Below the pieces are notes generated by a model, which did no database searches, had not been told where the DNA came from, and saw only the letters and a program-made list of their open reading frames with translations. From the IMG/VR virus record IMGVR_UViG_2585427710_000003, positions 1-5,827 of that record: a stretch of 5,827 nucleotides of DNA, one strand, 5' to 3'. Made by a program: the position numbers and the translations under genes. Positions 1,385 to 5,454 of this stretch are shown piece after piece; the first letter of the stretch is position 1, and every line of letters begins with the position of its first letter. This DNA is from a virus. Taxonomy: Duplodnaviria > Heunggongvirae > Uroviricota > Caudoviricetes.

Positions 1385-1567
1385 ATGCGAAAGTTCAAAA
1401 TAATTATTGAAACGGGAATCGCCGGTGGAGATTCCGAGGATGAATTCGAAGTGAATGATGATGCGACGCCTGATGAAATTCATAACGAAGCAAAAGAAAT
1501 TTTCTTTAACTACTGCAATTACTCATATCACGAAATAAAAGACGAAGAGGAAGAACAAAATGGCTGA
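1385..1567 (+). CDS. Small, highly acidic protein (60 aa; 18 Asp/Glu against 5 Lys/Arg); candidate DNA-mimic or anti-defence accessory protein
   Basis: ATG at 1385 is preceded by AGGAG (1356-1360), then a CCGCCC-GGCA-GGGCGG hairpin (1362-1377). Composition is strongly acidic with a C-terminal DEEEEQ. The stop TGA 1565-1567 overlaps the next ATG. It lies in an AT-rich segment that differs from its flanks. Confidence 0.5.
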   Translation: MRKFKIIIETGIAGGDSEDEFEVNDDATPDEIHNEAKEIFFNYCNYSYHEIKDEEEEQNG

Positions 1568-1736
1568 TTTTGGTTCAACTAAATACAACGTCAGTTTTGA
1601 AGAATGGCATGAACTGTTAATGGACTATGCAGAGTTACGTGGTGGAAGTGCCGCCGATGCTGAAGCATGGCGTGATGACTATGAAGCAGGAAAAACTCCG
1701 GTCGAAGCATATTGTGATGAGTGGGGCGATGAATGA
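1560..1736 (+). CDS. Second small acidic protein (58 aa, MADFGSTKYNVSFEEWHELLMDYAELRGGSAADAEAWRDDYEAGKTPVEAYCDEWGDE); below the length cut-off of the supplied ORF track
   Basis: ATG 1560 overlaps the stop of the previous ORF (ATGGCTGA), and its own stop TGA 1734-1736 overlaps ATG 1733 of the next gene (ATGA). It has 16 Asp/Glu against 4 Lys/Arg. The coupling on both sides supports translation. Confidence 0.45.
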   Translation: MADFGSTKYNVSFEEWHELLMDYAELRGGSAADAEAWRDDYEAGKTPVEAYCDEWGDE

Positions 1737-4556: not shown

Positions 4557-5242
4557 ATAACCAGTATTTACAGTTTGTTCGTGAGCAACTCATGATTGCC
4601 ACTGCGGATCTCAGTGGGGCGACAAAAGGTCAACTGGAAGCCTGTCAGGAAAATGCCCTGTTCGATACAGGGCGTTACAGACGCAAAAAAATTCGTTACC
4701 GCGATGAGGTAACCGGAAAAATGATCACGCGGGATAATCCCCCAATCCCGGGTAAACAATCACTGGCGAAAGGCTCATCAATTGCCCTGGTCAGTCCTGT
4801 TGAGTTTGCAACATCATCGTGGCGGCGTACCCTTCTGGAACTGGAAGAACATCAGAAGGCGTGGTTGTTGTGGTGTTATGGCGGAAACATTTGCTGGGAG
4901 CATCAGATCGCGATAACGCAGTGGGTGTGGAATGAATTTAAAACTCAGTCTGGTACCAGAAAAATTGCAGTGAAAACGCTGGAGCGTGTGAAGAAGTTGA
5001 TCTGGCTGGCGGCACAGGATGTCAGAGGATGGGTTACCGGGTGTGAGGTCTACCAGAGACAGGAGCTTGCCAGACTGTGTGGAGTTAAGCCTGATAACTG
5101 GAGCCATAATTATGCGAACTACTGGCGTGAGATGTGCGATATTTTTAAGCGCCTCGATAGAGAATCCTTGATTTGCTCCGTGAAAATAAGAGCGCAACAA
5201 AAAGCGACCTTTTCACGACGAGATATTGCAAAAGTCAATTAA
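4553..5242 (+). CDS. Q-like late-gene antiterminator (putative)
   Basis: ATG 4553 overlaps the rusA stop (ATGA) with GAGGTGG at 4540-4546; the track start at 4547 is a GTG. The 229-aa ORF sits between rusA and a short leader with an intrinsic terminator, the canonical position of Q. The assignment is mainly by synteny; I do not recognise the sequence with certainty. Confidence 0.6.
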   Translation: MNNQYLQFVREQLMIATADLSGATKGQLEACQENALFDTGRYRRKKIRYRDEVTGKMITRDNPPIPGKQSLAKGSSIALVSPVEFATSSWRRTLLELEEHQKAWLLWCYGGNICWEHQIAITQWVWNEFKTQSGTRKIAVKTLERVKKLIWLAAQDVRGWVTGCEVYQRQELARLCGVKPDNWSHNYANYWREMCDIFKRLDRESLICSVKIRAQQKATFSRRDIAKVN

Positions 5243-5303
5243 ATCGCGTATGTTTCGTATAAATCTGATATTTTGCCTATTTTGTACGCGATGACAAAAT
5301 AAG
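5243..5303 (+). promoter_or_regulatory. Candidate late promoter (pR'-like) and Q-utilisation region
   Basis: AT-rich stretch between the Q stop and the terminator, with a -10-like TATAAA at 5258-5263 and a weak -35. Q-dependent late promoters typically have a poor -35 and a short terminated leader. This is inference only. Confidence 0.3.
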
Positions 5304-5331
5304 AAAAAAACTGCCGCCAGGCGGTTTTTTT
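5304..5331 (+). terminator. Intrinsic terminator (tR'-like), symmetric with an A-tract and a T-tract, so possibly bidirectional
   Basis: AAAAAAA (5304-5310), then a GC hairpin CCGC-CAG-GCGG (5314-5324), then TTTTTTT (5325-5331). Confidence 0.7.
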
Positions 5332-5454
5332 ATGTCCGAAAATCGCGTCAGTACAGTAAACGCGCTGGCGGCGGTGAATACCGGTCTTTCAGCTTGCTGG
5401 CTTTTTCGACAAGAGTTATTGGTGTGTCACGTTAACCGAAAAAGGGAAAAAGAC

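Follow-up and report, generated by a model that had tools for sequence, protein, structure and literature searches.

The subject of this analysis is a pair of small overlapping open reading frames (ORFs) in a stretch of 5,827 nucleotides (nt) of the Caudoviricetes record IMGVR_UViG_2585427710_000003, the whole of which is here called the window. Both lie on the + strand and start with ATG: ORF1 (1385-1567) encodes 60 amino acids (aa) and ORF2 (1560-1736) a Trp/Tyr-rich protein of 58 aa. We found that both are real protein-coding genes under purifying selection and that together they form a two-gene accessory cassette, which is gained and lost by recombination at conserved gene junctions of lambdoid prophages. 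The proteins are unrelated to each other, and each comes from its own widespread family of stand-alone acidic phage proteins of 50-65 residues. As to function, we tentatively propose that these are two independent, early-expressed small proteins, each of which binds a host or defence protein.

Coding evidence, families and independence of the two genes

A set of 26 DNA variants of ORF1 and 20 of ORF2 from related loci was used to test for selection. Counted over codon positions 1, 2 and 3, the variable sites numbered 10, 8 and 25 in ORF1 and 4, 7 and 20 in ORF2. The codon differences were 1970 synonymous against 821 non-synonymous for ORF1 and 995 against 289 for ORF2. Also, the overlap between the ORFs is retained in 78 of 79 loci. 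Therefore, on the third-position variation, the synonymous excess and the kept overlap, the two ORFs are real, selected genes. This overlap is 8 nt long (ATGGCTGA), with the ORF2 ATG at 1560-1562 and the ORF1 TGA at 1565-1567. An earlier sequence-only reading of this DNA had linked the two ORFs by overlapping stop and start codons; the overlap stands, but in its detail it is not the 4-nt ATGA, which is found only where the ORF2 stop meets the start of the next gene (1733-1736). The Shine-Dalgarno (SD) motif of ORF2, GAGG (1547-1550, + strand), lies 9 nt upstream of its ATG, within the codons of the acidic tail of ORF1 (DEEEEQNG).

The same reading had the coordinates and lengths of the ORFs right, and its extreme net charge of -12 to -13 is borne out on counting. 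ORF1 has 18 Asp and Glu residues (D+E, 30%) and 5 Lys and Arg, with a net charge of -13 and an isoelectric point (pI) of 4.1, and the corresponding values for ORF2 are 16 (27.6%), 4, -12 and 4.05. The mean D+E content of the ten other genes of the window is 11.7%, which gives binomial tails of 1e-4 for ORF1 and 7e-4 for ORF2. The segment was also described as more AT-rich than its flanks, and we agree, as the GC content of 1385-1736 is 0.409, in the lowest 2.2% among segments of the same size. On dividing the values by gene, GC is 0.372 in ORF1 and 0.454 in ORF2 against 0.48-0.55 in the neighbouring genes, and at third codon positions (GC3) it is 0.37 and 0.31 against 0.50-0.67. Because GC3 is low as compared with the neighbours, the low GC of the two ORFs is more than a by-product of acidic codons. 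Of all 352-nt segments of the window, the one beginning at 1270, at the module's left homology boundary, has the lowest GC.

Neither ORF had been assigned to a family in the sequence-only reading, and this no longer holds. ORF1 matches Pfam DUF7167 (PF23768) with 49.9 bits (curated cut-off 24.4; E 3.5e-13), its residues 2-53 aligning to the full length of the profile (positions 1-60 of 60), and PHROG 1997 with an E of 5.9e-29; in RefSeq it is WP_022581296.1, 'DUF7167 family protein'. ORF2 had no Pfam family match. It aligns over its full length (residues 1-58) to positions 76-137 of the 143-position PHROG 519 profile (E 4.5e-23) and is listed in RefSeq as WP_000753060.1, 'hypothetical protein'. 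Each is a member of its family without any difference from it, and when both proteins were scanned against Pfam, PHROG, NCBIfam and PADLOC, the only matches were to DUF and PHROG families without a known function. No homology of ORF1 or ORF2 to a structural or housekeeping phage protein, a possibility which the sequence-only reading had also considered, was found. The exact sequences of ORF1 and ORF2 each occur on about 1,000 or more contigs of the protein collection. In the literature searched there was no mention of DUF7167, of the accessions or of the peptide strings, and the peptide strings are likewise absent from the supplements of an accessory-gene screen (PMC12373910). For phrog_519 and lygF the literature searches gave nothing functional besides one anti-CRISPR prediction, in which Kuttervirus members of PHROG 519 were listed as possible anti-CRISPRs by machine learning (PaCRISPR/AcrHub), as a prediction only (PMC9409062).

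An exhaustive profile search over 1.84 billion representative proteins gave 71 relatives of ORF2 at E <= 1e-3, the full-length matches being mostly of 50-65 residues. Word-seeded homology searches gave only close enterobacterial relatives or unnamed proteins. The core common to the 50-65-aa PHROG 519 relatives is F-E-E-W ... D-A-W-R-x-D-Y-x-x-G-x-T-P-x-x-A-W-x-D-E-W. Among 33 diverse relatives the conserved positions are F13, W16, L20, A24, W37, Y41, G44, T-P and W/Y51, with the acidic D33, D40 and D53/E54, and the net charge in the family ranges from -6 to -13. In the ORF1 relatives the conserved positions are I-E-T (8-10), G14, E22, D25, I32, A36, F40 and C44 together with the acidic C-terminal tail. 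Strong acidity is thus conserved in both families.

The relatives in sequenced phages were collected by tblastn. ORF1 gave 127 records, of which about 13 are the near-identical cassette; the remainder are for the most part E. coli myoviruses of Phapecoctavirus type and Kochikohdavirus phages of Enterococcus, with a few others, and one Klebsiella prophage relative has 66% identity. ORF2 gave 202 records, about 15 of them the cassette and the others mostly Ackermannviridae of Salmonella, Klebsiella, Escherichia and Shigella. The two genes co-occur only in the near-identical enterobacterial cassette (about 13-15 phage records), and the distant members (113 records for ORF1 and about 187 for ORF2) sit in different phage genera with unrelated neighbours. 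In the Klebsiella prophage and in Phapecoctavirus, the gene that follows the ORF1 homologue is unrelated to ORF2. In temperate phages and metagenomic contigs, homologues of ORF2 lie beside RecT/exonuclease, SSB, Ea22-like, lysozyme-like or DNA-polymerase genes, and some are amid runs of small unknown ORFs, but ORF1 was never found beside them there. Also, some E. coli prophages have a DUF1187 fragment fused to ORF2. The 127-aa protein P0139 (UniRef cluster of 20), from Enterobacteriaceae prophages, carries a truncated DUF1187 (YdaC-like) N-terminus in frame with an ORF2 homologue, and therefore ORF2 has alternative upstream partners. From these sequence comparisons, the two genes are not an obligate pair by descent or distribution. 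The functional pair of the sequence-only reading is thus set aside, as the distributions of the two families do not overlap except in the E. coli lambdoid cassette.

P0139 had been considered as a natural fusion of ORF1 and ORF2 and was rejected, its N-terminus being DUF1187 and not DUF7167. Lar/RalR, considered on account of the DUF1187 fusion, was also set aside, as Lar is a Cys-rich zinc-ribbon protein. On one contig (L125) a distant ORF2 homologue (5001-5156) is present in a replication module with DNA polymerase A and helicase, and a Tad2-like gene and an Nmad5 gene lie about 3 kb downstream of it (8092-8574); to share an operon with a Tad2-like gene is in keeping with the binder proposed below.

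A two-gene cassette in lambdoid prophages

The 5.8-kb window is the nin region (P-to-Q, from the replication genes to the late antiterminator gene Q) of a lambdoid Stx2-type E. coli prophage. The 601 bases around ORF1 and ORF2 occur with 100% identity in the chromosome of E. coli 99-3311, in which tRNA genes and stx2 come after the same run of genes. Of 5,426 complete E. coli genomes, 1,555 (about 29%) match this 601-nt segment over at least 80% of its length. An 'empty' site is seen in phage vB_EcoS-666R9 (1500-1670), in which a short gene-start remnant and the leader with its SD motif and hairpin (all described below) are joined to a downstream-type gene without ORF1 and ORF2; the C-terminus of this gene is homologous to the window gene at 1733-2248. 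Empty sites of this type were found in 303 complete E. coli genomes. The sequence-only reading had called for a survey of related prophages, and some of these carry the compositionally foreign segment whereas others lack it. Phage ArgO145 has the cassette, from the SD motif onward, among Ea22-like genes, a location that we read as the early-left, P_L-side region. The empty site and the shifted location in ArgO145 therefore show that the unit gained or lost is essentially the two ORFs. A synthetic empty-site query, in which the DUF4406 gene was joined to the downstream gene, gave only two-piece (filled) matches among its best 25 matches.

Homology to the window sets in abruptly at 1270 in 52 of 81 related loci and otherwise at about 1282 and 1354-1364, and the right end of homology is variable. 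DUF4406 is the upstream neighbour in a minority of the related loci, with lygF or other genes elsewhere. Near the left boundary is the remnant of an Ead/Ea22-like gene start (1223-1274, + strand; 16 codons, VSEINYQELRQVKEKA*), which overlaps the DUF4406 stop and is also seen after lygF in vB_EcoS-666R9. It forms the left copy (1216-1247) of a 32-nt direct repeat; the right copy (1725-1756, + strand) takes in both the ATGA at the ORF2 stop and the first codons (MSEINYQE) of the 1733-2248 gene. The two copies are 81% identical and have their source in Ead/Ea22-like gene starts (…SEINYQE…). Also, the segment 1212-1252 matches Ea22/Ead gene junctions in many phages. The conserved Ead/Ea22-like gene starts appear to be recombination junctions between modules.

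Between the remnant and ORF1 lies a conserved AT-rich leader (1270-1384, + strand), as seen from the homology boundary and from an alignment with phages 666R9, 640R1 and Rac. It travels with the cassette and also stands before other genes in cassette-less relatives. The sole good SD motif for ORF1 in it, AGGAG (1356-1360, + strand), is 24 nt from the AUG. Sequence reading, folding and comparison place a 7-bp G+C hairpin (1361-1378, + strand) directly 3′ of this motif and ending 6 nt ahead of the ORF1 ATG; its loop is GGCA here and GAAA (GNRA) in most relatives. The hairpin is found in both the minimum free energy and the centroid folds and is kept across the 79 loci, with a compensatory G-C to A-U double change in 4 of them and single mismatches in a few. 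The fold of the wider 81-nt region was not unusual when compared with shuffles (z = -1.2). The hairpin may shorten the distance between SD motif and AUG to about 6 nt, so as to make a possible structure-bridged ribosome-binding site, and translation of ORF1 would probably start from the AGGAG drawn near the AUG in this way. In T4 genes 38 and 25 a distant SD motif is known to be drawn close to the AUG by a hairpin.

The genes of the window are all on the + strand, in the order DUF1627 (YdaW-like), helix-turn-helix protein, DUF4406, ORF1, ORF2, PHROG 660 protein, hok/mok/sok, a 90-aa protein, DUF968/HNH, RusA and Q. The DUF4406 gene (932-1237), nucleoside 2-deoxyribosyltransferase-like, is directly upstream of the cassette region, and the PHROG 660 gene with its Ead/Ea22-like start (1733-2248) directly downstream of ORF2. 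The hok/mok/sok locus (2370-2694) is a complete type I toxin-antitoxin locus (Rfam sok, 114.8 bits); the Rfam scan of 1238-1740 gave no match, hok/sok being found only further downstream. In a consensus scan we found no sigma-70 promoter-like site in 900-2900, and no terminator-like site ahead of the intrinsic terminator-like one after hok (2763-2780). As neither kind of site was found for the cassette itself, it cannot be classed as an autonomous moron, and we infer that it is expressed with the early operon, as part of the run of same-strand genes between the replication genes and Q. It would be read from P_R through nin here and from the Ea22/early-left region in ArgO145. Further along, downstream of Q, an intrinsic-terminator-like hairpin with a T run is present at about 5306-5330. 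It lies within a region (5252-5334) that has weak, sub-threshold Rfam matches to isrK, AgrB and Phe_leader and that would be, by inference, the P_R'/qut-tR' region.

The scan of species-representative genomes gave 2 loci only, and a scan of viral sequences with P0164 gave no locus. The records of Actinobacillus phage vB_Apl-pPE4 and of a Collinsella sp. metagenome-assembled contig have 94.6% DNA and 97% protein identity to the E. coli cassette; these assignments are probably host misassignment or contamination.

Proposed function and rival explanations

Each of the two proteins would be too small for an enzyme. We suggest that each binds a host or defence protein stoichiometrically, soon after infection or induction, and so covers a basic, probably nucleic-acid-binding, surface on it. 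The mode would be the same as that of the small acidic phage inhibitors T7 Gp2, an RNA polymerase inhibitor, T4 Dmd, the antitoxin of RnlA/LsoA, and Ocr, with ORF1 and ORF2 probably acting independently and not as a complex. A stand-alone binder is suggested because of the small size, the conserved acidity, the genomic niche, the presence in both temperate and virulent phages and the predicted topology of ORF1. As the ORF1 family is present in Enterococcus and E. coli phages, its partner, if a host factor, would therefore be conserved across phyla or horizontally mobile.

The AlphaFold2 model of ORF1 (pLDDT, the predicted local distance difference test score, 77.7) has the order β(2-10)-β(15-23)-α(29-40)-β(46-51) followed by the disordered acidic tail, a predicted topology that known stoichiometric phage inhibitors may share. 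A Foldseek search of this model against BFVD gave uncharacterised small phage proteins only. The ORF2 model (pLDDT 81.3) is a three-helix bundle (13-27, 34-42 and 47-55), whose fold matches are AAA+ lid domains and UBA/CUE-like bundles. Sequence searches of the PDB with each protein and with the 33-sequence ORF2 profile gave nothing significant.

Several results weigh against the proposal of two independent binders. The AlphaFold2 models were built on shallow alignments of 16 close sequences and are moderately confident. Homology of the ORF1 family to Gp2 was rejected at an hhalign probability of 0.3%, the Gp2 query being checked against PDB 2wnm. In T7 Gp2 the strand-3 arginines R56 and R58 bind the β' jaw, and ORF1 has no counterpart of these, its strand 3 (NYSYHEIK) being without arginine. 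Conservation in ORF2 falls mainly on aromatic core positions (W16, L20, W37, Y41 and G44), with no obvious conserved interface. An Ackermannviridae homologue of ORF2 lies, by eye, near an apparent major-capsid gene, which does not readily suit an early anti-host role. The tight coupling in 78 of 79 E. coli loci could mean that the two proteins cooperate in this lineage. Also, neither ORF had a match in PADLOC or NCBIfam, and the literature searches gave no experimental paper on either family.

The main rival is a phage-internal regulatory role like that of the λ exo-xis proteins, in which the two proteins tune the lysis-lysogeny decision, induction or replication/recombination through phage proteins or a general host regulator. 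We consider this rather unlikely, though it deserves serious attention. The λ and Φ24B exo-xis proteins (Orf60a, Orf61, Orf63 and Ea8.5) are, like ORF1 and ORF2, products of small, non-essential, early-transcribed accessory genes, and the two sets share the same variable lambdoid regions adjoining Ea22-type genes. The cassette occupies the same niches, lying in the Ea22/exo-xis region of ArgO145 and in the nin region of this prophage; in most E. coli loci an Ea22-like-type gene follows with its start overlapping the ORF2 stop, and distant ORF2 homologues adjoin RecT/exonuclease, SSB or Ea22-like genes. The exo-xis genes are reported to shift lysogenisation and induction (PMC3824215, PMC6213356, PMC5575149), and nuclear magnetic resonance structures are reported for Orf63 and Ea22. 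Yet ORF1 and ORF2 are far more acidic than the exo-xis proteins and have no detectable sequence similarity to them; the PDB sequence searches gave none to Orf63, the Ea22 C-terminal domain or Ea8.5, all three being assumed present. The structure of Ea8.5 has also been solved. Further, unlike the exo-xis proteins, ORF1 and ORF2 both have relatives in virulent phages, including strictly virulent large myoviruses, which have no lysogeny decision to tune.

The sequence-only reading had compared the pair with the DNA mimics Ocr and ArdA, and one or both proteins could in this manner block type I restriction-modification, BREX or another DNA-binding defence. Ocr (T7 gp0.3) and ArdA are, like ORF1 and ORF2, strongly acidic, encoded by phages or mobile elements and expressed early, and the net charges of -12 and -13 with acidity kept in both families, the early-operon position and the horizontally mobile cassette all speak for mimicry. 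Very small acidic DNA mimics do exist, such as the 52-aa dimeric T7 gp5.9. However, a monomer of 58-60 residues is long enough for a short stretch of DNA only, and the acidic positions of ORF2 helix 1 are not conserved, whereas D33, D40 and D53/E54 are, so that the conserved acids would look like a local patch rather than a phosphate-like array. Ocr is an all-α protein of about 117 aa that forms an elongated dimer and ArdA a three-domain dimer of about 166 aa, of which ORF1 and ORF2 have about one third of the length. No sequence or fold similarity to Ocr or to ArdA was found for either ORF in the family scan, PDB and fold searches, and both are absent from the fold-match lists of the two models. 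The analogy is without support, and we consider DNA mimicry in the Ocr/ArdA sense, which a small oligomer might still achieve, improbable. A lysogenic-conversion moron, expressed from the repressed prophage to the benefit of the host, for example through superinfection exclusion or stress tolerance, would agree with the AT-rich foreign composition, which is typical of morons, and with the presence/absence polymorphism. Against it stand the consensus scan, with no sigma-70-like promoter in 900-2900 and no flanking terminator, the translational chaining into the operon on both sides, the homologues in virulent phages and the lack of a PADLOC match, which together make it very improbable. Least credible of all are spurious or decaying ORFs without protein function. 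Their small size and the many truncated variants among the database clusters could be read in this way, but the purifying selection on both, the protein conservation down to 33-45% identity in phages of different bacterial phyla, the confident compact AlphaFold models and the 8-nt overlap kept in 78 of 79 loci oppose it, and on the conservation data we regard this reading as effectively refuted.

Meaning for the two families and for E. coli prophages

The two genes themselves are ordinary small accessory genes, already catalogued, and the prophage cassette that they form is very common. What is new here is structural and comparative: the limits of the cassette and its empty site are defined, the two genes prove independent, and no relationship to Ocr or ArdA was found. 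That one or both proteins are the first of a new family of anti-defence inhibitors, for example as a miniature DNA mimic or a blocker of a nuclease or sensor, seems to us more doubtful than probable. If true, the cassette would be among the commonest unrecognised counter-defence loci in E. coli, as about 29% of complete genomes carry it and Stx-converting phages do so too. The target of the ORF1 family would then be conserved across phyla, as its phages infect both Gram-negative and Gram-positive hosts. A counter-defence or host-takeover role, if true of either protein, would also provide a function for two widespread families so far without one: DUF7167, which ranges over E. coli and Klebsiella prophages, Phapecoctavirus and Enterococcus phages, and PHROG 519, which ranges over enterobacterial prophages and Ackermannviridae. 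Such a role would further bear on the spread and induction of Shiga-toxin phages.
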